The notes under the pieces are model-generated. The model was not told where the DNA came from. It searched no databases and worked only from the letters and a program-made list of their open reading frames with translations. This document shows positions 4,888 through 59,923 of a DNA stretch of 64,000 nt, one piece after another; the first letter of the stretch is position 1, and each line of letters opens with the position of its first letter. Origin of the DNA: an uncultured Candidatus Saccharibacteria bacterium (GTDB lineage: Bacteria > Patescibacteriota > Dojkabacteria > SC72); NCBI GenBank assembly GCA_964560525.1, contig CAZLLO010000003.1, positions 9,585-73,584 of the forward strand. The letters run 5' to 3'. The translations under genes and the position numbers were made by a program.

Positions 4888-5226
4888 ATGAACACCAAAA
4901 AAGACATTTTATTCGAAAAGAAACAATTTTTTATAGATACAATTGCTAAATTTTGTGATAAATGTGGTACTCAATATGCACTTGAAGATGTTAATATAAT
5001 CCAGAATACTGGAATATCAAGCATTATACACTTTTCGTGTCATAATTGTAAATCCAAGCATATCGCAACATTTGTTGCACCACTTGGTATTAGTAATCGA
5101 GTATCTGTGAATACAGACTTAGGAGTAAAGGAAATTAAAAAGTTCTCTTTTGAAAAAGAGGTTTCTACACAAGACATTCTTGAGATTTATACGTGCTTAA
5201 AAAACAATCCAAAGGTTGTTCTTTAG
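4888..5226 (+). CDS. Hypothetical zinc-ribbon protein (112 aa)
   Basis: CDKC...CHNC pattern, i.e. two CxxC pairs. Divergent from rpoD, with a tataat-like box just upstream. Confidence 0.45.
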   Translation: MNTKKDILFEKKQFFIDTIAKFCDKCGTQYALEDVNIIQNTGISSIIHFSCHNCKSKHIATFVAPLGISNRVSVNTDLGVKEIKKFSFEKEVSTQDILEIYTCLKNNPKVVL

Positions 5227-28172: not shown

Positions 28173-28176
28173 CATT

Positions 28177-28716
28177 ATGAATACAAACATGAAAAAAGAA
28201 GCAGAACAAGAGAATAAGTGTAAACAATGTGAACAGTTAAGTTCACAAGTTGAAGAGCTAACACTTGCTGTAGAGAAAATTGAATCAGAAAGGCAGATAT
28301 TGGAGAACCAGCTTAAGAAAGTTCTTGCTGACTATCACAATCTTGTTAGTAATTCCGAAAAAAGAAATGAGATAAGGTTCTTTCAAACAAGAAAACATTT
28401 AGCAGAGTCAGTAATTCCCACCTTGGATTCACTAAACTTAGCGCTTAATACAAGTAAAGATTTAAAACTGGATGAAAATGGACAAGCATGGGCAAACGGT
28501 GTTAATGCAATATTTCAATCGTTGATAAAAGCATTTGAAGAAATAGAATTAAAACAATATGTACCAAACAAAGGGGACAAATTTGATCCTAATGTACATG
28601 AAGCAGTAGCAACTCTAGAACAGGGAAATAGTGGTGAAATATATGACTTGGTATCCCCAGGTTATATATTAGACAACACTGTAATTCGACCCGCTCGAGT
28701 GGTTGTCTCAAAATAG
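28177..28716 (+). CDS. grpE: Nucleotide exchange factor GrpE
   Basis: Coiled-coil N-terminus and the C-terminal VIRPARVVV motif. Confidence 0.9.
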   Translation: MNTNMKKEAEQENKCKQCEQLSSQVEELTLAVEKIESERQILENQLKKVLADYHNLVSNSEKRNEIRFFQTRKHLAESVIPTLDSLNLALNTSKDLKLDENGQAWANGVNAIFQSLIKAFEEIELKQYVPNKGDKFDPNVHEAVATLEQGNSGEIYDLVSPGYILDNTVIRPARVVVSK

Positions 28717-28741
28717 TATTAAATTTTTATATTAAATAATT

Positions 28742-30637
28742 ATGTCAAAAATAATAGGAATAGATCTCGGAACTACAAACTCCGTAATGGCTTACATGGA
28801 GGGTGGAAAACCTAATGTTATTCCAAGCGCACAAGGTGGAAGATTAATCCCGTCTGTAGTTGCTGTGGATGATAAAGGTGAAACGCTTGTAGGTGTATTG
28901 GCTAAGAACCAAGCAGTTACCAATCCAGAGGGAACAATTTACTCTGTAAAAAGATTAATTGGTAGATCTTGGAGTGATCCCGAAGTTCAGAAAGATATTA
29001 AACTTCTACCTTTTGAGATGAGAAAGTCTTCAAATGGTGGTGTAGAAGTAAAAATGAAAGATAAATGGTACACACCTCAGGAGATATCTGCAAAGATTCT
29101 TGCAAAAATGAAGAAGGATGCGGAAGACTTCTTAGGAGAACCAGTTACGGAGGCTGTAATTACAGTTCCTGCCTATTTTGATGATTCTCAAAGGCAGGCT
29201 ACAAAAGATGCTGGCAAAATTGCAGGGTTAGATGTTAAGAGAATTGTAAATGAACCTACTGCAGCCGCACTAGCATATGGTGTAGATAACGGTAAAGATG
29301 AAAAGATTGTCGTATTTGACCTTGGTGGTGGAACATTTGATGTTTCTGTATTAGAAATTGGAGAGGGAGTATTTGAAGTACTTTCAACTAATGGTAATAC
29401 TCATCTAGGAGGTGATGACTTCGACCAGAGGGTTATAGACTATCTTGCAGATGAATTTAAGAAAAAAGAAGGAATTGATCTAAGAGAAGATCCAACAGCT
29501 TTACAAAGATTAAGAGAGTTTGCAGAGAAAGCAAAAGTAGAACTTTCAAGCTCTGAACAAACAGAAATTAATATCCCTTACATCACAGCAGGTGCAAGTG
29601 GTCCTAAACATTTGAAAGAAACCCTAACTAGATCTCAATTAGAGAAATTGGTTGCTGATTTGATCGATTCTACAGCTCAACCATGTGAGAAAGCACTAAA
29701 AGATGCGAAGCTGAAAAAAGAAGATATCAACCAGGTTCTTCTAGTTGGTGGTATGTCTAGAATGCCGGCTGTAATCAAGAAGGTTGTTGAAATCTTTGGG
29801 AAAGAGCCTAACAAGGGTGTAAACCCAGATGAGGTAGTAGGTGTAGGTGCTGCAATCCAAGGTGGAGTCTTAGGTGGTGATGTAAAAGACATTACACTTT
29901 TAGATGTAACACCATTGTCACTTGGTTTAGAAACTCTAGGTGGAGTTATGACCAAGCTAATAGAGAGAAATACAACTATTCCTGTAGAAAAGAAGCAAAT
30001 ATTCTCAACCGCAGCAGACAGTCAACCAGCTGTAGAGATCCATATTCTTCAAGGAGAAAGAGAAATGGCTGCAGATAACAAGACTTTAGGAACATTCATA
30101 CTTGATGGTATCCCAGCAGCACCAAGAGGTGTCCCTCAAATTGAGGTTTCATTCTCTATCGATGCAAATGGTATTTTGAATGTAAAAGCGGTAGATATGG
30201 CTACTAAGAAAGAACAGAAAATTACCATAACTGCGTCTACAGGGCTTAAAGATGAGGAAATCGAAAAGATGGTTGAAGAAGCAGCAAAGCATGCAAGCGA
30301 GGATAAGGAGAAAAAGGAAAGAGTTGAGAAACGAAACGAGGCAGATACACTATGCTTCAATACTGAAAAGTTAATCAAAGAGAATGGAGATAAGATTGAG
30401 GAATCAGATAAAAAGGAATTAACTGAAAAATCTGACGAACTTAAGAAGCTTATCGAAAAAGACGACTTTGATAAAGCAGATGTAGAAAAGAAAACAGAAG
30501 AGCTTATGAATAAGATGCAGGAAATAGGTAAGAAAATGTACGAAAAAGCTGCTAAAGAAGCTCCAAAAGAAGAGTCTAAGGATGAGCCTAAGAAAGATGA
30601 AGAGAAAAAAGCGGAAGAGGGAGAAGTTGTAGAATAA
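28742..30637 (+). CDS. dnaK: Chaperone DnaK (Hsp70)
   Basis: [18 protein letters not shown] and the rest of a canonical Hsp70. Confidence 0.97.
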
Positions 30638-36581: not shown

Positions 36582-38204
36582 ATGTCAAAATCAATCATAT
36601 ACAACGAAGAGGCAAGAAAAGCTCTCAAAGCAGGTGTAGATACAATCTCTAATGTTGTTAAAACAACTCTTGGTCCCAAAGGTAGAAATGTAGCTATTGC
36701 TAAAAGCTTTGGTTCTCAAATAATTACTAAGGATGGTGTAACTGTTGCAAAAGAAATTGAAGACAAGGATCCATTTAAAAATGTTGGTGTAGAGATGATA
36801 AAAGAGGCTGCAAACAAAGTAAACGATCTCGCAGGAGATGGTACAACCACAGTTGCAGTTCTTGCTCAAGCTATAGCTAATGCGGGCTTTAGAAATGTCT
36901 CTGCAGGTGCTAATCCAATTGCAATTAAAAGAGGTTTGGATAAAGGAACAGAAATGATTGTCAAAGAATTAACTAAGTCAGCAAAGAAGATTTCTAAGAA
37001 AGAAGAAATCTCTCAGGTAGCTACAATATCTACAAATAATGATAAGGAGCTAGGAGAAATGATAGGTGGTGTGTTTGAGAAAATTGGTAAAGATGGAGTT
37101 ATAACTGTTGAAGAAGCAAAAGGATTTGCAGATGAGGTTGAATATACAGAAGGTATGGAATTTGATAATGGATATGTAAGTGCATACTTTGTTACAGATA
37201 GGGAAACATTGGAAGCGAATATGGAAAATCCATATATCTTTGTTACGGACAAGAAACTTTCCAATCTTCAAGATATTCAAGCAATTGCAGAGAAAGTCTT
37301 AAGTGCAGCAGATAGACCATTGGTAATTATTGCTGATGATATTGAGAATCAGGCATTAGCAACATTGGTTGTAAATAAATTAAGAGGTACTCTTGATGTT
37401 GTAGCTGTTAAGGCTCCAGGGTTCGGTGATAGGAAGAAAGAAATGCTTAAAGATATTGCAGTGCTCACGGGTGCAAAATTTGTATCGGAAGAATTAGGCA
37501 ATACTTTAGAATCAGTTGAACTTGCAGATTTAGGTTCTGCAAAGAAAGTTTTAGTAACAAAAGAAAAGACAATCATTGTTGAAGGGAAGGGCTTAAAAGA
37601 AGAAGTTGAGGGTAGGATTAAAGAAATTAAAGCACAAATAGAGAAGACAACTTCTGATTATGATAAGGAGAAGTTACATGAAAGATTAGCTAAACTAGAT
37701 GGTGGCGTTGCAGTAATTCAAGTTGGTGCTGCTTCCGAAGTAGAAGCTAAGGAAAAGAAACAGAGAATAGAAGATGCTATAAATGCTACACGTGCAGCTA
37801 TTGAAGAGGGTGTTGTTGCTGGTGGTGGTTTGGCTTTGCATAATGCTAAATCAGTTTTAGAGGATGTAAAGCTTGATGATGTTGATGAGCAGATGGGTAT
37901 TGAAATTCTTAAATCCGTATTAAGTGAGCCTTTAAAACAGATTGCTGAAAATGCGGGAGAGGATGGTGCTGTAGTTGCAGCCAACTGTCATGATAGCATA
38001 GGGTATAATGCTAAGACAGGTGAGTATGTAGACATGATTAAATCTGGAATTATAGACCCTGTTAAGGTAACAAGATTAGCATTAGTTAATGCTGCTTCTG
38101 TTGGTACGATGTTAATAACTACAGAAGCTGTTGTAGCAGACCTACCAGAAGAAAAGGATAAGCCAACCATGTCCCCAGATATGGGAATGGGTGGGATGAT
38201 GTAA
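36582..38204 (+). CDS. groEL: Chaperonin GroEL
   Basis: [15 protein letters not shown], the C-terminal GGM tail, and the rest of a canonical Hsp60. Confidence 0.97.
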
Positions 38205-43987: not shown

Positions 43988-45188
43988 CAGTATTCAATCT
44001 GAAGCCAGAAGACAAAAAGAAGGATTAGAATTAATAGCATCTGAAAACTATGTTAGTGAAGATGTGCTTGAAGCCTTAGGCTCAATATTGACTAACAAAT
44101 ATTCTGAAGGTTATCCAGATAAGCGTTACTATTGTGGAAATAAGTATATTGATGAAATTGAGAAGACAGCTATTTTAAGAGCGAAAGAGCTATTTGGTGC
44201 CGAGCATGTTAATGTCCAACCATATTCTGGATCTCCAGCTAATATGGCTGTATATTTTGCATTACTCCAACCAGGAGACAAAACAATGGGAATGTCACTT
44301 GATGCAGGTGGTCATTTAACACATGGATTTAAGGCTTCTTTTTCAGGGAAATATTTTGATTCAATAAACTATGGAGTGGATGATAATGGATATATTGACT
44401 ATGAAGAGGTTAGAAAGTTAGCTTTAGAACACAGGCCTAAACTCATATGGGCGGGATTTTCTGCATATTCTAGAATAATAGATTGGCAAAGATTTAGAGA
44501 TATCGCCGATGAAGTTGGAGCATATCTAGCTGTGGATATCTCGCATGTTGCAGGATTAGTTGTTTCTGGAATATATCCATCTCCTGTAGGTATTGCAGAT
44601 GTTGTTACAACGACAACACATAAAACACTCAGAGGGCCAAGAGGAGCCATAATTATGTGCAAAGAATCACTTGGAGAGCAGATAGACAAAACAGTGTTCC
44701 CAGGGCTTCAGGGAGGGCCACACAACCATGTAACAGCCGCTATGGCGGTTGCATTTAAAGAAGCCTCAACTCCAGAATTCAAGGAATATGCAAAACAAAT
44801 TGTAGCTAATTCAAAAGCCCTTTCAGAAGCATTAGTGAAGCTAGGATATACAATTATTTCTGGAGGAACAGATAATCATCTTTTCTTGGTAGATGTTATG
44901 AAGAGTATTAGTTTAACAGGTAATCAAGCGTCTGATATCTTAGAAAAGGCAAATATTACGGTTAATAAAAACGCAGTACCAAACGATCAAAGAAAACCAT
45001 GGGATCCATCTGGGATCAGAATTGGTACTCCAGCATTAACTACTAGAGGAATGAAGGAAGCAGATATGGAGATTGTTGCTCAATTCATAGATAAAGCATT
45101 AAGAAATCCTAGTGATGATAATTTAGAAGAAATCAAATCAGAAGTTAAAGAGTTTACCAAAGACTTTCCAATACCAGGTATAGATTAA
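43962..45188 (+). CDS. glyA: Serine hydroxymethyltransferase
   Basis: LIASENYVSEDVLEA, the THKTLRGPRG PLP-lysine region, and the rest of a canonical SHMT. Confidence 0.95.
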   Translation: MIKDQEIYNSIQSEARRQKEGLELIASENYVSEDVLEALGSILTNKYSEGYPDKRYYCGNKYIDEIEKTAILRAKELFGAEHVNVQPYSGSPANMAVYFALLQPGDKTMGMSLDAGGHLTHGFKASFSGKYFDSINYGVDDNGYIDYEEVRKLALEHRPKLIWAGFSAYSRIIDWQRFRDIADEVGAYLAVDISHVAGLVVSGIYPSPVGIADVVTTTTHKTLRGPRGAIIMCKESLGEQIDKTVFPGLQGGPHNHVTAAMAVAFKEASTPEFKEYAKQIVANSKALSEALVKLGYTIISGGTDNHLFLVDVMKSISLTGNQASDILEKANITVNKNAVPNDQRKPWDPSGIRIGTPALTTRGMKEADMEIVAQFIDKALRNPSDDNLEEIKSEVKEFTKDFPIPGID

Positions 45189-45205
45189 ATTTAAATATTC
45201 TAGAT

Positions 45206-45772
45206 ATGATACTCTCAGATAGATCAATTAGGGCGAAACTTAAAACTGGAGAGATAACCATAGAGCCATTTGATGAGAAATTTCTACAGCCAGCTTCATA
45301 TGATCTTCATTTAGATAGCCATTTCTTAATATTTAATAAAAAGAAAGATTTTGTTATTGATGTTAAAAAGCCCATTGATGACCTTATGCAAAGTATAGAA
45401 GTAGATGAAAATGATGGTTATGTGCTTCAACCAGGAGAATTTGTTTTGGCCAATGTAAAAGAGATAACTGGAGTAGATGGAAAACATATAGCAAGATTGG
45501 AGGGCAAAAGCTCATTGGGTAGATTAGGGTTAGCAATTCATGTTACTGCAGGATTTTTAGATCCTGGGAATAATTTGAGGCTTACATTACATATGATAAA
45601 CCTGTCTCCATTACCAATTAAAATATATCCAGGCATGAAGATTGCACAAATCATATTTGAACTGTTAGATCAGGAATGTGATAGAAAGTATGGTTCTGAG
45701 GGACTAGGGAATAAATATGTTGGAACAATGACTGTAAAAGGGAGTGAATACTGGAGAAATTTCGAGAAGTAA
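45206..45772 (+). CDS. dcd: dCTP deaminase
   Basis: ILSDRSI...QPASYDLHL...EGKSSLGRLGL motifs. Confidence 0.85.
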   Translation: MILSDRSIRAKLKTGEITIEPFDEKFLQPASYDLHLDSHFLIFNKKKDFVIDVKKPIDDLMQSIEVDENDGYVLQPGEFVLANVKEITGVDGKHIARLEGKSSLGRLGLAIHVTAGFLDPGNNLRLTLHMINLSPLPIKIYPGMKIAQIIFELLDQECDRKYGSEGLGNKYVGTMTVKGSEYWRNFEK

Positions 45773-45792: not shown

Positions 45793-47073
45793 ATGTCTAA
45801 CAACATTAGGGATCAATTCCCAATACTAAAAACTAAGATAAATGGTAATCCAATTGTATATTTGGATAATGCCGCTACTACCCAGAAACCTCAGTTTGTA
45901 TTAGATTCCATCAATGATTACTACACTAAGTATAATGCAAATATTCATAGAAGTTCTCATGTCTTAGCTAAAGAAGCTACAGAGAGATGGAAGAATGCAC
46001 ACCAAATAGTTGCAGATTTCTTGAATGCTGATAACTACAAAGAGATTGTGTTTACGAGAAATACTACTGAAGGATTGAATCTTCTAGTTAATACATATGG
46101 AAAAGCAAATCTTTCCAAAGGAGATATTGTCATAGTTTCAGAGATGGAACATCACAGTAATATTGTTCCATGGATGATTTTGCAAAAAGAGATTGGTTTT
46201 GAAATTAAATATATTCCTGTAAACGAGAATTTCGATCTAGATTTGAATTGGTTAGAAGAGGAAATTAATAGGGACGGAAATAGAATTAAGATTGTTTCTG
46301 TGGTACATATCTCAAATGTACTTGGAACATTAAATCCTGTTAAAGAAATTGCAGAATTATCTCATAGGGTAGGGGCCTTTATGATTGTTGATGCAGCTCA
46401 AAGTGTTCAGCATGTTAAGGTTGATGTTAAGGATATAGATTGTGATGCATTAGTATTTTCAAGTCATAAGATATATGGACCAACTGGTAATGGAGTTTTG
46501 TATTGTAAGGAAAATATCTTAGAGAAATTACCTCCATATATGGGTGGTGGTGAGATGATATTAAGTGTTTCTAAAGATGGTTTTGAAATGAATGATTTGC
46601 CATGGAGATTTGAGGCAGGTACGCCCGATATTGAAAGCGGGATTGTGTTCGGAGAAACTTTGAAATGGTTTACAAAGACTGTAAATGAAATGGGAGGATT
46701 TGAGAAACTTGTAGAGCATGAAAGAGGTCTAATGAGAGAACTTCTAGATTCTTTCGATGGGGTAGAGTGGTTTAAACCTTTTGGAAAGATAGACTACAAT
46801 AACCGATATGGAGTTTTAACATTTAATATAGAGGGCTTTAGTTTTAAAGGATGTAAGGAAAAACGTCAGGAAAATCAGGAGGGTGATGGTATTGTTGAAT
46901 ATATTAGTAAAAAAGGAGTATGTGTAAGAGAAGGCTTCCATTGTGCAGAACCACTTCATGACAGATTCCATATTGGTCCCACAATGAGGGTAAGTTTTGG
47001 GATATACAACAACATAGAGGATGTCAAAAAATTCTCAAACTATCTCAAAGAAGCACTTCTAAGTTCATATTAG
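45793..47073 (+). CDS. sufS: Cysteine desulfurase (class V aminotransferase, SufS/CsdA-like)
   Basis: YLDNAATTQKP, the SSHKIYGPTG PLP-lysine region, and a C-terminal conserved Cys region. Confidence 0.85.
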   Translation: MSNNIRDQFPILKTKINGNPIVYLDNAATTQKPQFVLDSINDYYTKYNANIHRSSHVLAKEATERWKNAHQIVADFLNADNYKEIVFTRNTTEGLNLLVNTYGKANLSKGDIVIVSEMEHHSNIVPWMILQKEIGFEIKYIPVNENFDLDLNWLEEEINRDGNRIKIVSVVHISNVLGTLNPVKEIAELSHRVGAFMIVDAAQSVQHVKVDVKDIDCDALVFSSHKIYGPTGNGVLYCKENILEKLPPYMGGGEMILSVSKDGFEMNDLPWRFEAGTPDIESGIVFGETLKWFTKTVNEMGGFEKLVEHERGLMRELLDSFDGVEWFKPFGKIDYNNRYGVLTFNIEGFSFKGCKEKRQENQEGDGIVEYISKKGVCVREGFHCAEPLHDRFHIGPTMRVSFGIYNNIEDVKKFSNYLKEALLSSY

Positions 47074-48278
47074 AATGCTACTGGTGGTACAGAGCTTGGA
47101 GCAGTAGGAGTAGGATTATTTTCAATTGTAGGTGCTGTTGGAGTAGTCATTACACTTGGTGCTGACTCTGGTGCCTGTGAAGCTTGTAAATTTACGAATT
47201 GTTGCAAGTCTGGGAGTGGAGTACTTGGAATCTCTTGAGCAGGTTGGCTATCAAAAGTTGTTGGTAACTCTGTAACATTAGTAGGTGCTATGAAAGATTG
47301 CTCAGGTACCTGTACTGGCGTTGGTGATTGTACTGTAGGATCTTGCTCTGTTGGCACTGTTGTAGATTCACTATGTGATTCTTGTTGCATTATTGCCTGT
47401 AGATCAGATGATTGATTTTGTTCTGGTACTTTAACTTCTGTAGGAACAAATGTTGGTTGCTCTTGCATGAAAGGTGTTTCCTCTGTTGTTGGAGCAGTAT
47501 TACCTATTACATCTTGAATAGGAGTATTTGCGGGTGCTGGAGAATAGAGATTATTAGAAAGATTCTCCATATTTACAGGAGTAGTTTGAGGTATTTCACT
47601 CTCAGGTTGCACAGGAGTTACCTCTGGTTTAACCTCAGGAATACTTTCTACAGGTGTTTCTTTATCGCTATTTTTCTTCTTACTGAGAAGAATGCCAACA
47701 ATACTGATTAATAATATAACAGCACCACCTATTAGAACGTATGGCAAGTAATCCATAATCTTGTCTTTAAATGTTTCAGTAGTAGTTGTTGTTGTAGTTT
47801 TTGTTGTGGTTGTATTCTCTGTCTTTTGTTGTGTGGCTGTAACTGTATCTGTGTTATCTACATTAGTTACTGTTCCAACGGTTAAATCTCCTAAATCCAA
47901 TGTGGAATTCTCAAGTATTGTAAATTTGTATGCAGTTCCAGTACTTGTGAATGTTATATTTGCAATATTTCCTGTTACAGCCGTAGCTGTTTCCATTGTA
48001 CAGGTAACAGTTACGACATTATTTTGATTAGTAGAAGAAAACGTCCCACAGGAAGTGGATGTTCCTTGTTCTACTTTTGTGATAGTTACATCACTTGAAG
48101 CTTGTATAGCGATAGTGAAACCAGTTAGTGTATCTGTGTTTGATTCAACACCCAAAGCTACCTGTTTAAGAGTTGTGGTAGAAGTATCCTTTACTGCAAG
48201 ATCTACAGCTGCGAATATTTTTGTTGGAAGAAGTATGAGTAAAAATACAGGTAGAACCAAAAGAAGCAGTTTTTTCAT
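47070..48278 (-). CDS. Secreted/membrane protein: signal peptide, beta-rich Thr/Val-rich domain (cohesin-like guess), poly-Thr linker, single TM, then a Pro/Thr/Gln/Glu-rich tail
   Basis: MKKLLLLVLPVFLLILLPTKIFA signal peptide; TTTTKTTTTTTTET; TM YLPYVLIGGAVILLISIVGILL followed by KKKNSDKE (positive-inside); about 200 aa of low-complexity PTQE-rich tail. Confidence 0.6.
   Translation of the reverse strand: MKKLLLLVLPVFLLILLPTKIFAAVDLAVKDTSTTTLKQVALGVESNTDTLTGFTIAIQASSDVTITKVEQGTSTSCGTFSSTNQNNVVTVTCTMETATAVTGNIANITFTSTGTAYKFTILENSTLDLGDLTVGTVTNVDNTDTVTATQQKTENTTTTKTTTTTTTETFKDKIMDYLPYVLIGGAVILLISIVGILLSKKKNSDKETPVESIPEVKPEVTPVQPESEIPQTTPVNMENLSNNLYSPAPANTPIQDVIGNTAPTTEETPFMQEQPTFVPTEVKVPEQNQSSDLQAIMQQESHSESTTVPTEQDPTVQSPTPVQVPEQSFIAPTNVTELPTTFDSQPAQEIPSTPLPDLQQFVNLQASQAPESAPSVMTTPTAPTIENNPTPTAPSSVPPVAF
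47779..47813. repeat. Imperfect trinucleotide tract (AGT/TGT/GGT on the + strand) encoding the poly-Thr linker
   Basis: The tract agtagttgttgttgtagtttttgttgtggttgt read directly in the sequence. Confidence 0.5.
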
Positions 48279-48380
48279 CAAAATGGCAGTTTAATTTTAT
48301 ACTTATTAAGGCTATCATGGCAAAAGAAGAAAGTCAAAAAGAATTATTTGACTTAATGGCTTTGTACAGATACACTTTTA

Positions 48381-49592
48381 ATGAATATATTACTGCCTAA
48401 TATGGATTACACAAATACAGGTTTACTACAAAATAATAATGGAGTAGGGGAGAATTCTCTTTCAGAGGTGATGGCTTTGAGAAACAAACTGATGGAGTCT
48501 AGGGTTCCAATTGATTTAAAAAACAGTGCTTTAAAAGGTGTAGAGAGAGTAGAGCGAGCTGCAAAAAATGGAACATATAGCTCAGAATTTGAAAATGTTA
48601 GTAAATATATCGAATGGATAACATCTATTCCGTGGGGAATAATTTCTCAAGATAATCTTGATATTAAGCATGCCAAAGAGTTAATGGATTCCACACACTA
48701 TGGTATGGATTCTATTAAAAATATGATCCTGGACTATCTAGCTTCGATGCAATTAGAGATGAGGCAGAATTTACCCACATATGGGAATATGCCTTCTCAA
48801 ATACAAGGTAATTTAGCTGAAAGAATGCCTGTGAATGCTCCTGTGGTTAAGAATGCAAGTTCGAAAGCGCCAGTATTTCTTTTTGTTGGTTTACAGGGTG
48901 TTGGAAAAACCACTATTGCTAAATCTATCGCTGACTCTATGGGTAGGAAATTCGCCAGAATTTCCTTAGGTGCAATAGGAGATGTGCGTACTTTAAGAGG
49001 TACTCCTAGGCATTCTATAGATGCTGAACCAGGTCAAGTTATCAAAGCTTTGGTTCGAGGTGGAACAATGAATCCAGTTATTCTATTAGATGAGATTGAG
49101 AAAGCCAGTGGTAATGCGGGATTATTAAATGATGTAATGGCTGCATTATTAGAGATTCTGGATCCTGAGCAAAATACAACTTTTATAGATCACTATGTGG
49201 ATTATCCTGTGGATCTATCAAAGGTTTTCTTTATATGTACTGCTAACAATTTGGGTGGTCTATCTGCTGCTTTGCTAGATCGTGTTGAGGTTATTCGTTT
49301 TACCAGTTATTCTGACGAGGAGAAGTTCGTTATAGCTAGGAAGTATATATTACCCAAGGTTCTTAAGGATTTGAATATATCTGAAGAATACATTCGCATA
49401 GATGATAGTGTATGGCCATTAATTATCCGTCCAGTAGGATTTGATGCGGGCATTAGGCAGTTAGAGAGAAATATCGCTTCCATAATTAGAACAGGTGCAC
49501 GTAAGATAGTTGAGGGGGCTCAACTTCCAATAGTGATCTCTACTGAGAATATAAACCAATATTTACCTCAGGATCAGGGACCTCTGAGTTAA
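48381..49592 (+). CDS. Stand-alone Lon-type AAA+ ATPase core, with no Lon N-terminal domain and no S16 protease domain
   Basis: Collinear with the E. coli Lon AAA+ region as I recall it: KYIEWITSIPW, HYGMDSIKNMILDYLAS, Walker A GLQGVGKTT, Walker B NPVILLDEIEKA, LEILDPEQNTTFIDHY, sensor FICTAN, LLDRVEVIRFTSYSDEEK, FDAGIRQLERNI. The ORF ends where the protease domain would begin. Confidence 0.8.
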   Translation: MNILLPNMDYTNTGLLQNNNGVGENSLSEVMALRNKLMESRVPIDLKNSALKGVERVERAAKNGTYSSEFENVSKYIEWITSIPWGIISQDNLDIKHAKELMDSTHYGMDSIKNMILDYLASMQLEMRQNLPTYGNMPSQIQGNLAERMPVNAPVVKNASSKAPVFLFVGLQGVGKTTIAKSIADSMGRKFARISLGAIGDVRTLRGTPRHSIDAEPGQVIKALVRGGTMNPVILLDEIEKASGNAGLLNDVMAALLEILDPEQNTTFIDHYVDYPVDLSKVFFICTANNLGGLSAALLDRVEVIRFTSYSDEEKFVIARKYILPKVLKDLNISEEYIRIDDSVWPLIIRPVGFDAGIRQLERNIASIIRTGARKIVEGAQLPIVISTENINQYLPQDQGPLS

Positions 49593-49855
49593 TACCCTTT
49601 AAAAGGATTTGCAAGTCGAAGTGCGGACATTGCCCTAGAGATTTGAGGATCTTTTTTCCCTTTTGATATATCTGCACGATATGAAATTTTTTTCTCTGCC
49701 TTAGTAATTTCGTCAAGGTCTGAAAGCACTTTAGTTTGCGGTATTTCGGAGGTGGTAACGGCTTGTGTTACTAGGTAGTTCTGTTCGTTAAGTAGATTTA
49801 AATTTTGTTGGTTATTGTTTTGTTCCATCATTATTAGGTATATAGCTAGGCACAT
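49589..49855 (-). CDS. Hypothetical small Gln/Asn-rich protein (about 80-88 aa), last gene of the T4SS-like operon
   Basis: ORF overlapping the 3' end of the VirB4-like gene; the start could be the ATG at 49855 or the one at 49828. No TM and no motif. Confidence 0.35.
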   Translation of the reverse strand: MCLAIYLIMMEQNNNQQNLNLLNEQNYLVTQAVTTSEIPQTKVLSDLDEITKAEKKISYRADISKGKKDPQISRAMSALRLANPFKGY

Positions 49856-52244
49856 TCCCTTGTGGAGTTGTGTGCTCTCTACCTTTTTGAATATCCTCCC
49901 TTGATTGTACCACTTGTCCTGATACAGTGTTTTGTTTTATGGTATCTAAGAAAGATTGTTGGCTTTTGAATTTGTCAGGGTTTAGTTCTAGCTCTTGTTG
50001 TCTAAGTCTTTCTTCTAATTCCTTTTGATATTGTGATCTCTCATCTTCGATAAGCTCTTGGTCGGATTTTCTTTTCTGTATTGCCTGATCTATCACATGT
50101 TGTTGTCTTTCCAAACTTTTCCCATCTCTCATAGGTTGTTGTTCTGCAGGTGGTTCATATATCTGTGCTAAATCCTCAAGTGTACGTGTATCTGTTGCTC
50201 CAGCATTTGCTCTTTGTGCTTCGAGTTCCTTTGGATCTGTGGTAATTAATTCATGTTCTGCCTGACTTGATATGATTTGGATGCCGACATGGTTAGCTCC
50301 TGCAAAGAAAAGACCTTGTCCTCGGTCACAACTTAACAAGAAATTCTTTTCTCCGTCAGATAGATTGAAAACTGTTTGGAGTTTATCTACAGAAGAGGGA
50401 CTTTGTTTCATCAATATTTGCATAGAAGAGTTAGATATGATGGCTTTTCCCATATCATTGCTTAGGAAGTCAGATACATCCTGTGTTATTGTGGAGAGGC
50501 CAAGATAGTATTTTCTTGCTCTTTTTGCAATTGAATACATGAAGTTTGCAGAATCAAGGCTTTGCATCATATACCAAGCTTCATCAACGATTAGTAATCT
50601 TCTCTTTTGATCTTTTCTAATCTTAGTCCATATGAAATCGAGCATTAGATACATTGATAGAGGCTTGAGCTCATCTTGTAAATCTCTAATACTAAATACT
50701 GTAAAAGGATTGTTAATTTCGAAATTACTTGCTTCATTGAATATACCTGCGGCACTGCCGATGATATATTTTTCCATTCTTCTTGCTAAATCATGAGCTT
50801 CATTCTCGGCCATTCCCTTTAGTACCTTATACATATCTTCAAGTAGTGGAGGCTGTTTGGTTTGAGTTGAAGGATCAAATGTAATACCTTTCTCACGATA
50901 GGTGAGTATTAATGCTTTATCCAACAGGGACTCTTCAACATTACTTAGTCCTCCGAAAAGAATTTTAAAGAAACCGTGTAGAGATAGTAATTTCATTCTC
51001 AATTCATCATCTCCTTCTTCTGTGATCCCTGATAGCTCAAATGGATTCATCTTGTTTCCTTTGTCCTGGGAGAATGAAATGTAAGAACCGTTTACTGCAT
51101 TTGAGAGGGCTTGGTATTCTTTCTCAGGGTCAATGATTATAATTTCGGTACCAAGCATCAGACTTCTAAGTACTTCTAATTTCACAAAGTAGCTTTTACC
51201 TGCACCAGCTTTTGCAAATACTACAGTATTTGCATTTTCTAATTGGAATCTATCAAAGATAACCAAGCTCTTGTTATGCATATTTATTCCGTACATGATT
51301 CCATGGTCCATTGTTAGTTCGGAAGTTACAAATGGGAATGTAGTTGCAAGAGAAGTGGTATCCATATTTCTGGTTATGAAGAGTGGATCTAGGCCAAGAG
51401 GTTGTGTACTTATAAATCCTTGTGCTTGTTGCAGTGTAGCTGGTTTGGCTACTACGCTCATTGCTGCGAGGGTAGAGGTTACATTTCTAGAATATTTTTC
51501 TAAGAGGTTTTTGTTTGGTGCATATATTGTTATATACATTCCAAAGTGAAAATATTTTTCAGATCCTTCTGCAATGGAATCTTGAAGTTGTTGTGCATCT
51601 GAAAGCGCAACCTTAAGAGTAGGGTCTACAACTTTTCTATCTTCCATTTGAGAGTAGAGAGTTGCTTCCATTTCACCAATCTTTCTCTTAAGTTTTTCCA
51701 GTATCTCCTTTGTTTCTACAGGGTAGTAAAAGGTACTAATTCTTAAAGAATGTTCAAAGTTGACGATAGGGGAAAGCCAGTTTGGGCCTACAACACGAGG
51801 ATATCCACTAATGAAGAATGTCTTAAAATAGTAGTCTCCCATTTGAAGATGATTGAAGTCTATTTCCATATCTATTGGGGCAACTATATCCTTGATAGCC
51901 ATCTTCTCGTCTATCAGGGTTAGATCCTCATCTACTTCTGATGCAGGCTTAATTTCCTCACCTCCAGCTTTCTTTTTATTTACTACAGAAGATATCTTAT
52001 CTAGTAGCTTTAATAGGGGATTCTTTGATTTAGGTTTTTTCTCTTCGGAGTTTTCTTCAACGAGAGGATCTACGACTCTATTTGCTTCTGGTCTTTCTCT
52101 GGCAGTGGAAACTTCTTTTTGTAAGTCTTGTCTAAAAGTCTGATACTTTTCTCCCGCAGTTTGGAGTTTCTCTTCCTGGCTATGTAACTGCTCCATGGTC
52201 TTGCTCTCTATTACTGGATTTTCGTTTAGATTGTTATTTTCCAT
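49812..52244 (-). CDS. VirB4/TrbE/CagE-family type IV secretion ATPase (core) with low-complexity N- and C-terminal extensions
   Basis: Walker A FAKAGAGKSYFV; diagnostic VirB4/TraC Walker B LLIVDEAWYMM followed by RKYYLGLSTITQ; N-terminal YFKTFFISGYPRVVGPNWLSP, a VirB4 family signature. Own ATG with a strong GAGGAGG Shine-Dalgarno. Confidence 0.85.
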   Translation of the reverse strand: MENNNLNENPVIESKTMEQLHSQEEKLQTAGEKYQTFRQDLQKEVSTARERPEANRVVDPLVEENSEEKKPKSKNPLLKLLDKISSVVNKKKAGGEEIKPASEVDEDLTLIDEKMAIKDIVAPIDMEIDFNHLQMGDYYFKTFFISGYPRVVGPNWLSPIVNFEHSLRISTFYYPVETKEILEKLKRKIGEMEATLYSQMEDRKVVDPTLKVALSDAQQLQDSIAEGSEKYFHFGMYITIYAPNKNLLEKYSRNVTSTLAAMSVVAKPATLQQAQGFISTQPLGLDPLFITRNMDTTSLATTFPFVTSELTMDHGIMYGINMHNKSLVIFDRFQLENANTVVFAKAGAGKSYFVKLEVLRSLMLGTEIIIIDPEKEYQALSNAVNGSYISFSQDKGNKMNPFELSGITEEGDDELRMKLLSLHGFFKILFGGLSNVEESLLDKALILTYREKGITFDPSTQTKQPPLLEDMYKVLKGMAENEAHDLARRMEKYIIGSAAGIFNEASNFEINNPFTVFSIRDLQDELKPLSMYLMLDFIWTKIRKDQKRRLLIVDEAWYMMQSLDSANFMYSIAKRARKYYLGLSTITQDVSDFLSNDMGKAIISNSSMQILMKQSPSSVDKLQTVFNLSDGEKNFLLSCDRGQGLFFAGANHVGIQIISSQAEHELITTDPKELEAQRANAGATDTRTLEDLAQIYEPPAEQQPMRDGKSLERQQHVIDQAIQKRKSDQELIEDERSQYQKELEERLRQQELELNPDKFKSQQSFLDTIKQNTVSGQVVQSREDIQKGREHTTPQGNVPSYIPNNDGTKQ

Positions 52245-52884
52245 CTTCTTCTTCCTCCTCTGGGTTATATATGGTATAGAATTCTGAAAGTAATTCAGTA
52301 TTATTTAATTGATGCCCGAACAATCCCATACGTGAGAGCTGTTTAAGAATATGATCTCTTTTGGGGTACAAGAAGATCTTTCCCTTCTCGAGTAGTTGGT
52401 CTATCTGCATTTGTTTGTATTGTTCTTCCTCTTCTTTGTTTCTTTTCGACTTAAGAATATTACCAGTTGGTATGGAAATCCCAGGACTGTATGGAACTAC
52501 TATGAAGAAATTCTTGTCTAAAACATCGTTTTGAATAATTAAATTCTGTACGAATTTGGTATATATCTCTAACTGTTTGCGTAAACCCTCTGTCATTTCT
52601 CGTTTCTTTTGAGATTCAAGATAGTCTACGTAATTCGCAATATCAATTCTCTTTGTTCTAATGAGTATTTGAATCCTGAAATTTAGTGAATTCAAAAGTC
52701 CTGCGAAAGAAAATATCTTGCTATCTTGCTCATATTCTGCGAGAAGGTCAAAGTTAATTGCGGAAGTTCGTATCACCATCGCCACACTACCGCTATTAGT
52801 GATGATTAAATCGTCTCTGATCTCTTTCAGTTGCAATTGGTCTTGTGTTGAAGCTATTGCTCTAGCTCTTGCGTTTTTGTCCAC
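52234..52884 (-). CDS. Separately encoded homolog of the VirB4 N-terminal domain (216 aa, soluble, acidic C-terminal tail)
   Basis: DDLIITNSGSVAMVIRTSAINFDLLAEYEQDSKIFSFAGLLNSLNFRIQILIRTKR aligns with the N-terminal region of A. tumefaciens VirB4 as I remember it (DHIVLLEDGSIMSIARIDGVAFELEEIEMRNARCRAFNTLLRNI...). GTG start 2 nt after the upstream stop. Overlaps the VirB4 core gene by 11 bp in a different frame. Confidence 0.55.
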   Translation of the reverse strand: MDKNARARAIASTQDQLQLKEIRDDLIITNSGSVAMVIRTSAINFDLLAEYEQDSKIFSFAGLLNSLNFRIQILIRTKRIDIANYVDYLESQKKREMTEGLRKQLEIYTKFVQNLIIQNDVLDKNFFIVVPYSPGISIPTGNILKSKRNKEEEEQYKQMQIDQLLEKGKIFLYPKRDHILKQLSRMGLFGHQLNNTELLSEFYTIYNPEEEEEDGK

Positions 52885-52886
52885 TT

Positions 52887-53687
52887 TTAAATTGTCTTAA
52901 TTTTAATAGGTAATTTATGATCTGTTTCCTGAATGATTATTTGTACTTTAGGAAATTTAAACTGTGGGTGTTGGAACTCTAGGTAATATACACCTTTCTC
53001 CCAAATCCTGTTAGTCAAGAAATATCCACTTTGGCCAGTTCTATTCGCATACAATACTTTTCCGTCTTGTCCTTTCATGTAAGTTACTACATTTGGAACA
53101 GGTTTCATATCTTGAGTGTATAGCCAGACATTAATATTTCCAGGTAATTTCTCCAAACTCTGTATGCTAAATTCATAATTAGCTCGATTCTCATCTGATA
53201 TTACTAGTGCTTGAGGGGTTGATGGTATAGTATCTGGTTTTGTAGGTACTGTTTGCTCGGGTATCACTGCTATCTTCTTTTGAATCCCGCCGCCAATAAT
53301 TGTGCTTGTATTTTCTTTGAAACTCTTCTCTACTAATTTCCCCTCTGTACTAGGTTTAACTTCTGGTTTTACTCTTTCTTCTTTCATTTGGCTATTTAGC
53401 CAAACCATTTGTGTCGGAGCACTAATCGCATTGACATAGTTCTTTATGAAGACATCAGCGTCTTGGTCATTAACTGGAACTATTCCCAGGAATATTCCTG
53501 CACCACCAGTTACTATTGCAATTGGAATTCCTACTAATGCAGGGATAGTACCTCCTACTACTAGATACACCATGATTCCAGCTAACCCAAGTCCAACCGC
53601 AAGATATGCAAATTCTTTGAGTGTGAACTTAGTAAAGAGTTTGAACTCTACGTCTAATATATTTTGTGGTATAGGGTGTTGTCTCAT
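52887..53687 (-). CDS. PrgI/VirB3-like T4SS membrane protein with an extracytoplasmic C-terminal extension of about 170 aa (PEGA/CarbopepD-reg-like beta-sandwich)
   Basis: NILDVEFKLFTKFTLKEFAYLAVG followed by two TM helices, then GIVPVNDQDADVFIKNY, matching the Tn916 Orf17/PrgI pattern. C-terminal KGVYYLEFQHPQFKF beta-rich domain. Confidence 0.6.
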   Translation of the reverse strand: MRQHPIPQNILDVEFKLFTKFTLKEFAYLAVGLGLAGIMVYLVVGGTIPALVGIPIAIVTGGAGIFLGIVPVNDQDADVFIKNYVNAISAPTQMVWLNSQMKEERVKPEVKPSTEGKLVEKSFKENTSTIIGGGIQKKIAVIPEQTVPTKPDTIPSTPQALVISDENRANYEFSIQSLEKLPGNINVWLYTQDMKPVPNVVTYMKGQDGKVLYANRTGQSGYFLTNRIWEKGVYYLEFQHPQFKFPKVQIIIQETDHKLPIKIKTI

Positions 53688-57074: not shown

Positions 57075-58112
57075 CTAAAGAGAATTCAAATCAATCAGCT
57101 GCGCTTTTTTTAGTATTTCCTTTGGTAATTCCAAATGATTAATAATGGTTATGAATGTTTGTTGCTTCTGTATATTCTCCTCCCCAAATATCTTATGTGT
57201 ATTCTTAGGATCCAACTCCGAAGCAATATCATCTAACAAAAGAGTAGGGTAGAATCCCAATTTCTTGTTTAAAACATCCTGGACTTTAAATATCAAATTC
57301 CCAATAGCCAACCTCTTCTCACCCCTAGAACCATACTTCTTAATATTCTTCTCAACAATAATCTCCCAATCATCCCTCTGAGGACCAATATTAGAACAAC
57401 CAGTAACAATATCCCGCTTCTTTGCATCTTCAATACACTCCTCTAAATCCTTGTCATTAGATTTAATATATTCCAAAGAAAAACCATCAGAAGAAAGCTC
57501 ATCAACCAATTCTAACCTTTTAGTTTGAATAATCTTAGAAAGATTTACAAACTCATTAGTCCAGAAATTAAGTTGAGTATCATTACGGGCTATAATCCCC
57601 TGCTCGTAGAACTTCTTAGCAAGCTTTTTTAAATATGCATTCCTCTGTCTTAAAACCTTTCTAAATTGCGCCAAAGTATCATTGTACTCATAGTCAATTT
57701 GGGATATAACCTCATCAAGAAAATCCCTCCTTCGAGAAGGAGAAATCATCAAAATCTCAATCTGTTCAGGATTAAATATCGTAGACGCATTACTCTGAAA
57801 AAACTTCTTAGGAGTAGTATTCTGGTTATCTATCTTACAAACCCTTCGACTTTGATCCTTAAAGAACGCAAACAGATGTTCATCCGTAGCTATCTCAATT
57901 CTTGCAAATTTGTCTTCTTCATTTTGAGTATTGTTAACAAATTCATCAGATACTGCCCATGGAGATTTACCATTAGTAAGGAGATATATAGCTTCGAGGA
58001 TAGTACTTTTCCCTTGTGCATTATTCCCATACAACACTACAATATCCTTGTTAATATCAATTTGTACATTCTCAAATCTTCTGAAATTTGTTAACTTTAT
58101 GCTTTTAATCAT
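57075..58112 (-). CDS. recF: DNA replication and repair protein RecF
   Basis: IKSIKLTNFRRFENVQIDINKDIVVLYGNNAQGKSTILEAIYLL (Walker A) and the C-terminal LLLDDIASELD (Walker B / D-loop). Confidence 0.85.
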   Translation of the reverse strand: MIKSIKLTNFRRFENVQIDINKDIVVLYGNNAQGKSTILEAIYLLTNGKSPWAVSDEFVNNTQNEEDKFARIEIATDEHLFAFFKDQSRRVCKIDNQNTTPKKFFQSNASTIFNPEQIEILMISPSRRRDFLDEVISQIDYEYNDTLAQFRKVLRQRNAYLKKLAKKFYEQGIIARNDTQLNFWTNEFVNLSKIIQTKRLELVDELSSDGFSLEYIKSNDKDLEECIEDAKKRDIVTGCSNIGPQRDDWEIIVEKNIKKYGSRGEKRLAIGNLIFKVQDVLNKKLGFYPTLLLDDIASELDPKNTHKIFGEENIQKQQTFITIINHLELPKEILKKAQLIDLNSL

Positions 58113-59923
58113 TATGTTTTTAATATAGCTAAGAATGCTTCTTGAGGAATATTTACTTTTCCAATCATCTTCAATCTAGCTTTACCCTTTTTCTGCTTGT
58201 TGAGTAGTTTTAATTTTCTGGAATAGTCTCCACCATATAGTTTTGAGGTGACATCTTTTCTAAATGCACTAATATCTTCTCTTGCTATTACCTGTGCATT
58301 GATTGCTGCTTGTAGTGGTATTGGGAACTGTTGTCTTGGTATTACCGTTTTCATTACTTCGAGTAATTTAGCTGCTTTGGGTCTTGCATTTTCTCTTACT
58401 TCTAAGAAGCTTAGTGCTGGTATTTCTTCATATTTTACTAACACGGAGACTTTTACAATATCTGCTGGGAAGAAATCTATGAATTCGTATTCCATTGATG
58501 CATATCCACTGGATATATTTTTCATCTGGTCAAAGAAGTTTGATATGAGGGATGCAAGAGGGATGTCGTACTCTAGAATGATATATTGCTCTGCCATTTG
58601 CATATCACTTTTCCCATTATTTAGATATTTGGTATTAACATAGGAACCTCTCCTGAGTTGGCATAGCTTCATTAAATCCCCCATGTATTGAGAAGGGGTG
58701 AGGAGTTCTATTCTTACCCATGGTTCTCTAATCTCCTTTATAACTGCTGGATCTGGTAACTCTTGTGGAGTTTGTATACTCATATTTGTTCCATCTAGCT
58801 TAGTGACCTGATACTCTACAGTAGGGGCTGTAATTATGAGGTTAACGTCATACTCCCTTTCTAGTCTTTCTTGAATTATATCCATATGTAGGAGCCCTAG
58901 AAAGCCACATCTGAACCCTGAGCCAAGTAGGTTGGATCTTTGATCTGTGAATGTTAATGATGCATCATTCATTGCCAATTTATTTAGTCCTGTTCTTAGG
59001 TTCTCGTAGTCTTCAGAATCAATTGGGAAGAAAGTTGCAAAGATATTTGGCTTTGGAGGCATATATCCTGGAAGTGGTTCTGTATTCGTTTTGTCCGAGA
59101 TAGTATCTCCTACGGTAAAATAGCTAATATCCTTTAATCCAGTTGCAATATATCCAACTTCACCCGTATTCAATGCTCCTGTTTCTTCCAAATCAGGAGA
59201 GAAGACACCAATCTCAGTAGGTTTGAAACTCTCTTTCCTTTGTAAAATATTTAATGAAGATGGTTTCCCATGTGTATGCTTGATGCTTCCATCAAATATT
59301 CTTACAGCTACTACAACACCTCGATGTTCGTCATAGAAGGAGTCAAAGATTAAAGCCTTGAGAGGGTTGTTTTCTTTTCCGCTAGGGGTGGGGACTTTTT
59401 CGATGATTGCATCGAGAAGTTTGTCTACATTTTCTCCTGTCTTTCCAGATACTTTTATAATTTCATCTTTAGAAAATCCTAACAATCCTTCGATCTCTCT
59501 TTCTCGGTCTTCTAGTTTAACTCCAGGTAAATCTATCTTGTTTAATACTGGTATTAATTTAAGACCCAAATCTAAAGCTTTTCTAGTGTTTGATATTGTT
59601 TGAGCCTGTATACCTTGGCTAGCATCTATGAGTAATATTGCAGCTTCGCATGCAGCAAGAGAACGAGATACTTCGTATGAGAAATCTACATGTCCTGGTG
59701 TATCTATGAGGTTTAATTGGTATCCTTTCCACTGCATTGTACATGCTTGGAGTTTGATAGTGATTCCTTTTTCTTGTTCTAATTCCAATCGATCAAGGAT
59801 TCTTTCTTTATGCTTCTCGTGGGTAGTATCTGTATGTGTTGCTTCAAGCATCCTATCTGCGAGCGTAGACTTCCCATGGTCTATATGTGCAATTATCGAA
59901 AAGTTTCGTATTTTATCTAACAT
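58112..59923 (-). CDS. lepA: Elongation factor 4 (LepA)
   Basis: NFSIIAHIDHGKSTLADR, DTPGHVDF, NKIDLP, and the LepA-specific C-terminal domain. Confidence 0.95.
   Translation of the reverse strand: MLDKIRNFSIIAHIDHGKSTLADRMLEATHTDTTHEKHKERILDRLELEQEKGITIKLQACTMQWKGYQLNLIDTPGHVDFSYEVSRSLAACEAAILLIDASQGIQAQTISNTRKALDLGLKLIPVLNKIDLPGVKLEDREREIEGLLGFSKDEIIKVSGKTGENVDKLLDAIIEKVPTPSGKENNPLKALIFDSFYDEHRGVVVAVRIFDGSIKHTHGKPSSLNILQRKESFKPTEIGVFSPDLEETGALNTGEVGYIATGLKDISYFTVGDTISDKTNTEPLPGYMPPKPNIFATFFPIDSEDYENLRTGLNKLAMNDASLTFTDQRSNLLGSGFRCGFLGLLHMDIIQERLEREYDVNLIITAPTVEYQVTKLDGTNMSIQTPQELPDPAVIKEIREPWVRIELLTPSQYMGDLMKLCQLRRGSYVNTKYLNNGKSDMQMAEQYIILEYDIPLASLISNFFDQMKNISSGYASMEYEFIDFFPADIVKVSVLVKYEEIPALSFLEVRENARPKAAKLLEVMKTVIPRQQFPIPLQAAINAQVIAREDISAFRKDVTSKLYGGDYSRKLKLLNKQKKGKARLKMIGKVNIPQEAFLAILKT

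Follow-up and report, generated by a model that had tools for sequence, protein, structure and literature searches.

Few ATP-dependent proteases are as conserved as Lon, in which the ATPase and the protease nearly always form parts of one chain. In the LonA proteins a central AAA+ module is accompanied by an N-terminal substrate-binding domain and by an S16 Ser-Lys protease domain. The gene considered here lies in a 64,000-nucleotide stretch (positions 9,585 to 73,584 of contig CAZLLO010000003.1, assembly GCA_964560525.1, an uncultured bacterium placed by GTDB in the Dojkabacteria), which is termed the window throughout. It encodes a protein that corresponds to the ATPase core of Lon and possesses neither of the two flanking domains, and it is a member of a large family of such proteins.

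Several described systems resemble this protein in one respect or another. PDB entry 6N2I, an engineered 'Lon protease AAA+ domain' of 344 amino acids (aa), has nearly the same boundaries and was matched with a target-normalised TM-score (TMt) of 0.89 over 371 aligned columns; it is, however, a fragment of a full-length protease, whereas the present protein is a natural and conserved product with signatures of its own. LonC, exemplified by Meiothermus LonC, represents the mirror case, in which the protease is kept and the AAA-like domain is degenerate and ATP-independent, while the present family keeps the ATPase. The stand-alone AAA+ ATPases ClpX and HslU, which belong to the same AAA+ clade as Lon, and the protease-free chaperone ClpB offer functional models for a protease-free Lon; in all of them the pore-loop residue is still aromatic, and each has its own N domains or docking loops. 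Lon has a known protease-independent chaperone activity, which is an analogue of the role proposed below.

The reading preferred here, to which a probability of about 0.5 is given from sequence comparison, is that the gene would encode a Lon-derived AAA+ ATPase with a housekeeping role, passed on vertically in Dojkabacteria and Microgenomatia, which remodels or chaperones other proteins without degrading them.

Domain architecture and the missing Lon domains

Mechanical translation yields an open reading frame (ORF) at 48381..49592 on the plus strand with 403 codons, present as first described. The true start is probably the ATG at 48402, which would give a protein of 396 aa, because the methionine aligned with M8 is the first residue in 96% of 144 homologues according to the alignment column statistics; positions 1-7 of the 403-aa frame are gaps in at least 94% of 144 family members. 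Residues are numbered below on the 403-aa frame.

Pfam recognised an AAA domain at residues 167-308 (1.1e-19) and Lon_lid (PF22667) at residues 332-380 (5.7e-09), with nothing else specific to Lon, and neither Lon_C (PF05362) nor LON_substr_bdg (PF02190) was matched in the protein at E values up to 1. The 'lon' profile TIGR00763 was covered from position 245 to 568 of 795 (1.2e-95), and the score of 321.6 bits lies under its cut-off of 608.05; likewise, NF008053 gave 229.2 bits against a cut-off of 891, with an alignment that stops at profile position 580 of 784, so that the whole protein scores beneath the curated thresholds of the LonA family. Among solved structures the top matches were LonA proteins, in which residues 23-126 correspond to Meiothermus Lon 239-339 and residues 160-382 to 345-564, and the stretch of about 35 residues between these segments has no Lon counterpart. 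The preliminary description of the locus had let the homology begin near Lon residue 300; the collinearity in fact extends from about residue 240 onward.

The AlphaFold2 model, built from 57 homologues with a mean predicted local distance difference test (pLDDT) of 82, comprises five N-terminal helices, a disordered segment at 132-160, an AAA+ alpha/beta subdomain and a lid, and Foldseek superposed it on Lon AAA+ modules. Compared with LonA (TIGR00763; Meiothermus taiwanensis Lon 7FD4/7YPH, E. coli Lon 6U5Z and human LONP1), the helical bundle, the AAA+ subdomain and the lid are collinear over the whole folded protein, with 37-41% identity and a query-normalised TM-score (TMq) of 0.68-0.78. 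The pre-AAA bundle is the C-terminal portion of the helical N-region of Lon, which packs on the AAA+ ring; its helices were modelled at 22-39, 44-62, 69-82, 95-105 and 110-129 (pLDDT 75-95), and neither in the family nor in canonical Lon do P84, H106 and K113 vary, while Y76 hardly does. Within the family, the length of the linker inserted after the bundle varies between 0 and more than 100 aa. Pfam, TIGR00763 and the structure matches thus agree with the earlier view of a Lon-type AAA+ core that lacks the N and S16 domains. Of five features that define LonA, this protein has the AAA+ module with a Lon-type lid, and it is without the N domain, the S16 domain, a score above the cut-off and the pore tyrosine discussed below.

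Other AAA+ families were less similar. Profiles of ClpA, ClpB and ClpV gave weak matches at the level of the AAA domain, at most 44 bits and limited to the generic core; the 19 Pfam and 38 NCBIfam matches were all AAA+ or generic P-loop families, and none was of the T2SSE/VirB11 or TraG/VirD4/TrwB type. A BrxL-like defence Lon was rejected as well, since PADLOC returned no BrxL match and at best DolB, with 44 bits over a 43-residue P-loop stretch. Kinship to Lon-like proteins with tandem AAA modules, which ranked first in the search of cluster representatives, was also considered and discarded: single-module LonA scores higher per module (259 bits versus at most 227), and the high totals of the tandem proteins are sums over modules. 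These tandem proteins (P0123-P0127, P0130, P0133, P0137, P0159 and P0168) have a length of about 1000-1400 aa with two or three Lon-type AAA+ modules, many of them with a C-terminal S16 domain and some modules with non-canonical pore loops, e.g. ...RPDAAPG. A 753-aa protein of locus L012 that clustered with the family turned out to be a Clp-type ATPase and not a canonical Lon.

The missing domains were sought in the surrounding DNA. When all frames of the 64-kb window were searched by tblastn with the LON N and S16 protease domains of 16 canonical Lons, neither was found, the best hit (E = 0.03) lying inside dnaG, and both flanks of the ORF are occupied by minus-strand genes, which bears out the earlier statement that no frameshifted N-domain or protease remnants are present there. 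The motif DGPSAG is missing from about 20 family-type representatives and GPSAG from 20 truncated ORFs (loci L011-L019 and L093-L103), and no S16 or LON-N coding sequence was found in 322 kb around 20 family loci (about 10 kb on either side).

These searches bear on the idea of a two-component Lon, in which the ATPase would dock, perhaps through its C-terminal tail, on an unlinked S16 or other peptidase and would thus have its protease in trans. ClpX and HslU, of the same AAA+ clade, do use separate peptidases, ClpP and HslV respectively, and the C-terminal tails conserved within the subclades could be typical docking elements. However, no S16 or LON-N sequence occurs near the examined loci or in the window, no peptidase recurs as a neighbour (an M23 peptidase was seen once, at L008, and an M10 peptidase once, at L173), and the remodelled pore loops speak against efficient translocation into a protease chamber. 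An arrangement of this kind is therefore considered unlikely.

ATPase site, pore loops and proposed function

Column statistics were compared between 144 family sequences and 55 canonical LonA proteins. Eleven residues, namely G170, G173, G175, K176, T177, D237, E238, N289, D300, R301 and R359, are conserved to 100% in both sets, and the earlier claim that the ATPase motifs are intact is thereby upheld. Walker A, Walker B, sensor-1, the arginine finger, sensor-2 and the segment LLE[IV]LDPEQN were scored as identical to those of LonA, save that Walker A reads GLQG for GPPG; in the family L171 reaches 97% and Q172 90%, versus proline at 95% and 100% in canonical Lon. In the lid, the canonical segment YTREAGVR has switched to VGFDAGIR.

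The pore loops, in contrast, are not Lon-like, a point on which the preliminary description was silent with respect to pore-loop 1. The LonA pattern HRRTY[IV]G.MPG is replaced by TPR[Y/H/Q]S.D.EPG, pore-loop 2 is changed as well, and the linker insertion is added. In the 55 canonical Lons, pore-loop 1 has the tyrosine and the threonine at 100% and the histidine at 98%, whereas the family pattern is R-G-T-P-R-[Y/H/Q]-S-x-D-x-E-P-G, and Ser212, which follows His211, aligns with the translocating tyrosine of Lon (Meiothermus Y397; alignment offset +185). An aromatic residue stands at the position of this tyrosine in 6 of the 144 family members and one position earlier, where this protein has histidine, in 110. 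The two acidic residues D214 (93%) and E216 (97%) are specific to the family. In pore-loop 2 the canonical G250 (100%) and P252 (96%) are N and V in this protein, and positions 247-248, gaps in 95% of canonical Lons, accommodate two extra residues in Dojkabacteria-type sequences. The conservation pattern shows that the fuel site is constrained as in Lon and that the substrate-gripping surface has been rebuilt and made acidic.

According to these comparisons, an ancestor of the family lost, a single time, both the N-terminal LON domain and the S16 protease; the collar of helices and the full set of residues for ATP hydrolysis, with the arginine finger that acts in trans, have been retained. Both substrate-contacting pore loops have been rebuilt, with pore-loop 1 becoming acidic (D-x-E) and the Lon tyrosine being lost or shifted by one position. 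Since the arginine finger acts in trans, its conservation places the putative active sites between subunits, and the protein would be expected to assemble into a Lon-like ring or spiral oligomer; ATP hydrolysis and oligomerisation are both predicted from the conserved catalytic residues and this finger. As no peptidase is attached or encoded nearby, ATP turnover would presumably lead to remodelling, holding or release of partner proteins, so that clients would be remodelled, held or partly unfolded and not degraded, as by a general housekeeping chaperone. Candidate elements for the binding of clients or partners are the N-tail, which is variable and disordered, the inserted linker and the conserved tail at the C-terminus.

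Several points weigh against this proposal. No canonical aromatic is present in pore-loop 1 (His211-Ser212) and none is conserved throughout the family, which makes processive threading doubtful, and 'unfoldase' may be the wrong word for such a protein. Of the earlier designation as an unfoldase or remodeller, the ATPase core stands, while the unqualified term 'unfoldase' is weakened by the Ser212 that takes the place of the invariant pore tyrosine. LonA relies on its protease domain for assembly of the ring, and a hexamer formed without that domain is an assumption. The neighbourhood evidence for any particular client is weak. Finally, no description of such a family was found by full-text searching of the literature on protease-less Lon and on Lon in the candidate phyla radiation (CPR), Patescibacteria, Dojkabacteria, Saccharibacteria and Microgenomates.

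Family distribution and gene neighbourhoods

The preliminary description had called the gene an orphan, whereas it belongs to a large conserved family in Dojkabacteria and Microgenomatia, with more than 240 clusters of 324-477 aa that share its architecture. More than 120 clusters with 65-84% identity and 378-412 aa, all with AAA and Lon_lid only, were retrieved from 5.8 billion proteins, and those with names are assigned to Candidatus Dojkabacteria or WS6. Distant members at 40-60% identity (343-669 aa) came to light when 1.84 billion cluster representatives were searched exhaustively, and a query with a Levybacteria member yielded at least 120 further clusters of 324-477 aa, the named ones from Levybacteria, Woesebacteria or the Patescibacteria group. 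Nine distant members of 394-669 aa again showed AAA and Lon_lid alone in Pfam, the extra length of the distant members consisting of low-complexity N-terminal, linker or C-terminal sequence.

A neighbour-joining tree of 332 aligned columns, with 33 family members and 55 canonical LonA proteins, separated the family as a single clan from canonical LonA in 200 of 200 bootstraps, with 170/200 for the Dojkabacteria-type and 199/200 for the Microgenomatia-type subclade. This topology fits one ancient loss of both flanking domains with vertical descent thereafter. The protein from the window shares the characters of the family, that is, the bundle, AAA and Lon_lid as its only domains, the Walker A form G-[LIV]-x-G, a pore loop ending in D/E-x-E-P-G, and its place in the clan. 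Its identity to the counterpart at locus L001 is 68%, and the same genome pair gives 72% for serine hydroxymethyltransferase (SHMT), 70% for FolD and 71% for VirB4. Every Dojkabacteria-type sequence inspected closes with DQGPLS; group B ends in G-x-[LVF]-S or G[IVT][VFL]S, and Microgenomatia-type proteins mostly in L-P-x-[YW]. These subclade-specific tails could be docking motifs.

Five metagenome-assembled genomes (loci L012, L013, L014, L017 and L019) are titled 'uncultured Gammaproteobacteria' or 'Pseudomonadales' and have the Patescibacteria-type truncated gene, and in the first four the order of pnp, rnj and ftsK is Microgenomatia-like; these titles are probably wrong taxonomic labels.

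That the gene is a truncated relic or an assembly artefact of a full-length lon is hardly credible. The short length and the TIGR00763 score below the cut-off, and nothing more, point in that direction, whereas hundreds of independent assemblies share these boundaries, the C-terminus and the catalytic residues are invariant, the family is monophyletic and deeply diverged, and the flanks code for other genes. The earlier conclusion that the gene is not a decaying pseudogene is consequently sustained by a conserved family with invariant catalytic residues.

Gene neighbourhoods were compared at 31 loci within the available flanks. In the Microgenomatia-type loci L012, L014, L015 and L092 the genes usually stand in the order rpsO-pnp-lonAAA-(udg)-rnj-ftsK-RodZ-like, all on one strand and with 1-73 bp between the Lon-like gene and its neighbours, and this order is partly kept in L093-L096, L099, L100, L102, L103 and L017. 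The Lon-like gene is divergent from groES-groEL in L016 and L019; in L005 and L010 it lies 4-5 kb upstream of groES-groEL with an FtsA/PilM-like gene between, in L009 it adjoins an FtsA/PilM-like gene and ftsK, and in L007 it is found between alaS and udg, while L172 and L173 show still other contexts. Adjacency to a uracil-DNA glycosylase (UDG) gene was seen in L011 and also in L007, L017, L018, L099 and L100. Housekeeping contexts dominate the neighbourhoods of the family. A DUF4012 protein is encoded at 8133..9995 of L009, 5 bp directly upstream of the Lon-like gene, and a 998-aa protein with an NAD-epimerase domain and DUF4012 at 5223..8219 (-) of the window.

This gene order raises the alternative of a non-threading ATP switch or assembly factor in nucleic-acid or cell-division housekeeping, for example as a partner of polynucleotide phosphorylase (PNPase) and RNase J in RNA decay or of FtsK/FtsA-like division proteins, in which ATP would govern binding and release and not unfolding. 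In L012, L014, L015, L092 and L094 the gene is flanked by pnp and rnj, both on its own strand and separated from it by 13-73 bp, and ftsK and the RodZ-like gene come next, and an FtsA/PilM-like gene adjoins it in the group B loci L005, L009 and L010; the unconserved pore-loop aromatic would suit a switch, and canonical Lon binds nucleic acid. On the other side, an acidic pore loop (D214, E216) is unexpected for direct binding of nucleic acid, co-linearity is weak evidence in small genomes such as these, where long collinear blocks of housekeeping genes are common, and Dojkabacteria and groups C and F no longer have this context, although the protein is still conserved there. We regard this alternative as improbable, to about the same degree as a protease supplied in trans.

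The preliminary description had proposed a role with the secretion apparatus encoded next to the gene, as an energiser or substrate unfoldase in place of the missing VirB11/VirD4. The neighbouring operon encodes a putative type IV secretion system (T4SS), and its VirB4 cluster adjoins the Lon-like gene in five of the 31 loci (the window, L001, L003, L008 and L011), all of the Dojkabacteria subclade and always in convergent orientation, with the order 88-aa ORF, VirB4, TraC-like and PrgI-like after the Lon-like gene. The adjacency is kept in all five Dojkabacteria-type loci, including L008 and L011, whose upstream flank differs, and this is what can be said in favour of a secretion role. Yet an M23 peptidase gene in L008 and a UDG gene in L011 intervene, and none of the other 26 loci shows a VirB4 cluster within the flanks available. 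The truncated gene is thus widespread in unrelated contexts, an occurrence that the preliminary description itself had named as refuting its proposal.

The orientation likewise disagrees with that proposal, which had described the gene as divergent from the operon. The TAA at 49590-49592 overlaps the stop codon at 49589-49591 of the 88-aa minus-strand ORF, so that the gene is convergent, tail to tail, with the VirB4 operon and is not co-transcribed with it; neither a transcript nor a promoter region is common to both, and it is solely from the upstream Thr-rich gene that it diverges. Furthermore, the protein has no similarity to the VirB11 or VirD4 families, and the VirB4 belongs to the CD1110 family, of the type found in Gram-positive T4SSs, which normally lack VirB11, so that no stand-in is called for. 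A secretion role is accordingly judged very improbable. The VirB4 linkage, confined to one subclade and never co-directional, looks like a derived rearrangement, and the adjacency is a Dojkabacteria-specific feature of gene order, probably without functional coupling.

Surrounding window and significance

The features of the Lon-like gene and of its neighbours are collected in the table below.

Table. Coordinates in the window of the Lon-like gene, its parts and the adjacent genes (aa and res, residues of the 403-aa frame; pl1 and pl2, pore-loops 1 and 2).
Feature	Coordinates	Strand	Basis or remark
Probable coding sequence, protease-less Lon-like AAA+ ATPase	48402..49592	+	ORF and homologue starts
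Pre-AAA helical bundle, aa 22-129	48444..48767	+	about LonA 239-339 (phmmer to Meiothermus Lon)
Linker insertion, aa 132-160, low-complexity, variable, predicted disordered	48774..48860	+	pLDDT <50; absent from canonical Lon
AAA+ large (alpha/beta) subdomain, aa 161-308	48861..49304	+	Pfam AAA; Foldseek TMq 0.68-0.78
Walker A GLQGVGKT, res 170-177	48888..48911	+	family GLQG where Lon has GPPG
pl1 RGTPRHSIDAEPG	48996..49034	+	in place of Lon RGHRRTY[IV]G[AS]MPG
Walker B VILLDE, res 233-238 (D237, E238)	49077..49094	+	conserved in both sets
pl2 region KASGNAGLLNDVM	49101..49139	+	two residues longer than Lon; near-invariant G-D-P gone
Sensor-1 TANN, res 287-290 (N289)	49239..49250	+	conserved in both sets
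Trans-acting arginine finger D300-R301	49278..49283	+	conserved in both sets
AAA+ lid (small helical) subdomain, aa 309-395	49305..49565	+	Pfam Lon_lid
Sensor-2 GIRQLER, res 357-363 (R359)	49449..49469	+	conserved in both sets
C-terminal tail PQDQGPLS and stop	49566..49592	+	protein ends where the Lon linker to the protease domain starts
Thr/Pro-rich 403-aa envelope-type protein, divergent upstream	47070..48281	-	no significant Pfam match
T4SS-like operon, convergent downstream	49589..53687	-	PF12666 PrgI, PF19044 TraG P-loop, NF045971
88-aa ORF	49589..49855	-	no family match
VirB4-like ATPase, 810 aa	49812..52244	-	NF045971 CD1110 family, 378 bits versus cut-off 325
TraC/TrsD-like, 216 aa	52234..52884	-	matches the N-terminal part of VirB4/TrsD-type (NF045975 positions 102-233; TrsD)
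PrgI-like	52887..53687	-	operon gene

In the operon, the 88-aa ORF overlaps the VirB4 gene by 44 nt and the stop codon of the Lon-like gene by 3-4 nt; it is 52% identical in L001 and L003, and L008 has an 88-aa ORF at the corresponding position. Two genes (together 49812..52884 on the minus strand) apparently share the VirB4-type ATPase between them, the TraC/TrsD-like gene with its N-terminal part and the 810-aa gene with the remainder, which exceeds the CD1110-family cut-off by itself; the two-gene arrangement also occurs in L001, L003, L008 and L011. T4SS_pilin (PF18895) genes are located about 9-10 kb from the Lon-like gene in L008 (20541..21524, three in tandem) and L010 (20473..21497, one weak), and the flanks fetched for L010 contain no VirB4 cluster. 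The Thr/Pro-rich protein possesses a hydrophobic segment at its N-terminus and a membrane-spanning stretch in the middle; it has a counterpart of 35% identity in L001 and none at this position in L003, L011 and L008, and its gene is outside the conserved neighbourhood of the family.

The window is otherwise ordinary chromosome, with metG, rpoD, dnaG, ftsK, hrcA-grpE-dnaK, murJ, folD, glyA and dcd. By position and synteny with L001 and L003, the ORFs at 36582..38204 and 58112..59923 are groEL and lepA, and those at 17459..20845 and 20829..24716 look like rpoB and rpoC from size and position alone. A gene for a 531-aa ThyX (PF02511) stands between glyA and dcd in L001 (6442..8037) and L003 (6495..8090), whereas in the window glyA is followed by dcd around 45188..45206 with no thyX there.

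With regard to regulation, a promoter and terminator scan around the Lon-like gene gave counts not above those of shuffled sequence. Heat-shock control through HrcA was considered because the window contains an hrcA-grpE-dnaK operon at 27447..30637 (+), and it was set aside: the controlling inverted repeat of chaperone expression (CIRCE; TTAGCACTC-N9-GAGTGCTAA, up to 3 mismatches) was found nowhere in the window, not even upstream of dnaK and groEL. At 20 loci, with up to 2 mismatches per arm, one good site occurred upstream of groES in L005 and a weak match at position 2750 of L015, about 7 kb upstream of the Lon-like gene, neither of them near a Lon-like gene.

For a large group of ultra-small bacteria, the short form of Lon is the normal one, conserved and not a broken gene, and no new type IV secretion component follows from it. 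The databases label these proteins variously as 'ATP-dependent Lon protease' (IMG), 'AAA family ATPase' (NCBI) and, for two WS6 genomes, 'Lon protease' and 'Lon protease 2' (UniRef), and as a result metabolic reconstructions may wrongly credit these bacteria with Lon proteolysis.

In a large clade of ultra-small and probably symbiotic bacteria, itself deeply diverged, the ATPase half of Lon is maintained under strong purifying selection with its pore loops rebuilt, which constitutes a natural experiment on what the Lon ATPase does without proteolysis and on how its ring assembles without a protease domain. It is a tentative and doubtful suggestion that Dojkabacteria and Microgenomatia may be without a Lon protease altogether, with this ATPase, whose pore is acidic and largely non-aromatic, as their sole protein of the Lon lineage; alternatively, it could be the ATPase half of a novel two-component Lon. 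If the former is true, a whole clade would have turned a universal quality-control protease into a pure ATP-driven remodeller, whose operon partners in many members would be the RNA-decay enzymes PNPase and RNase J.

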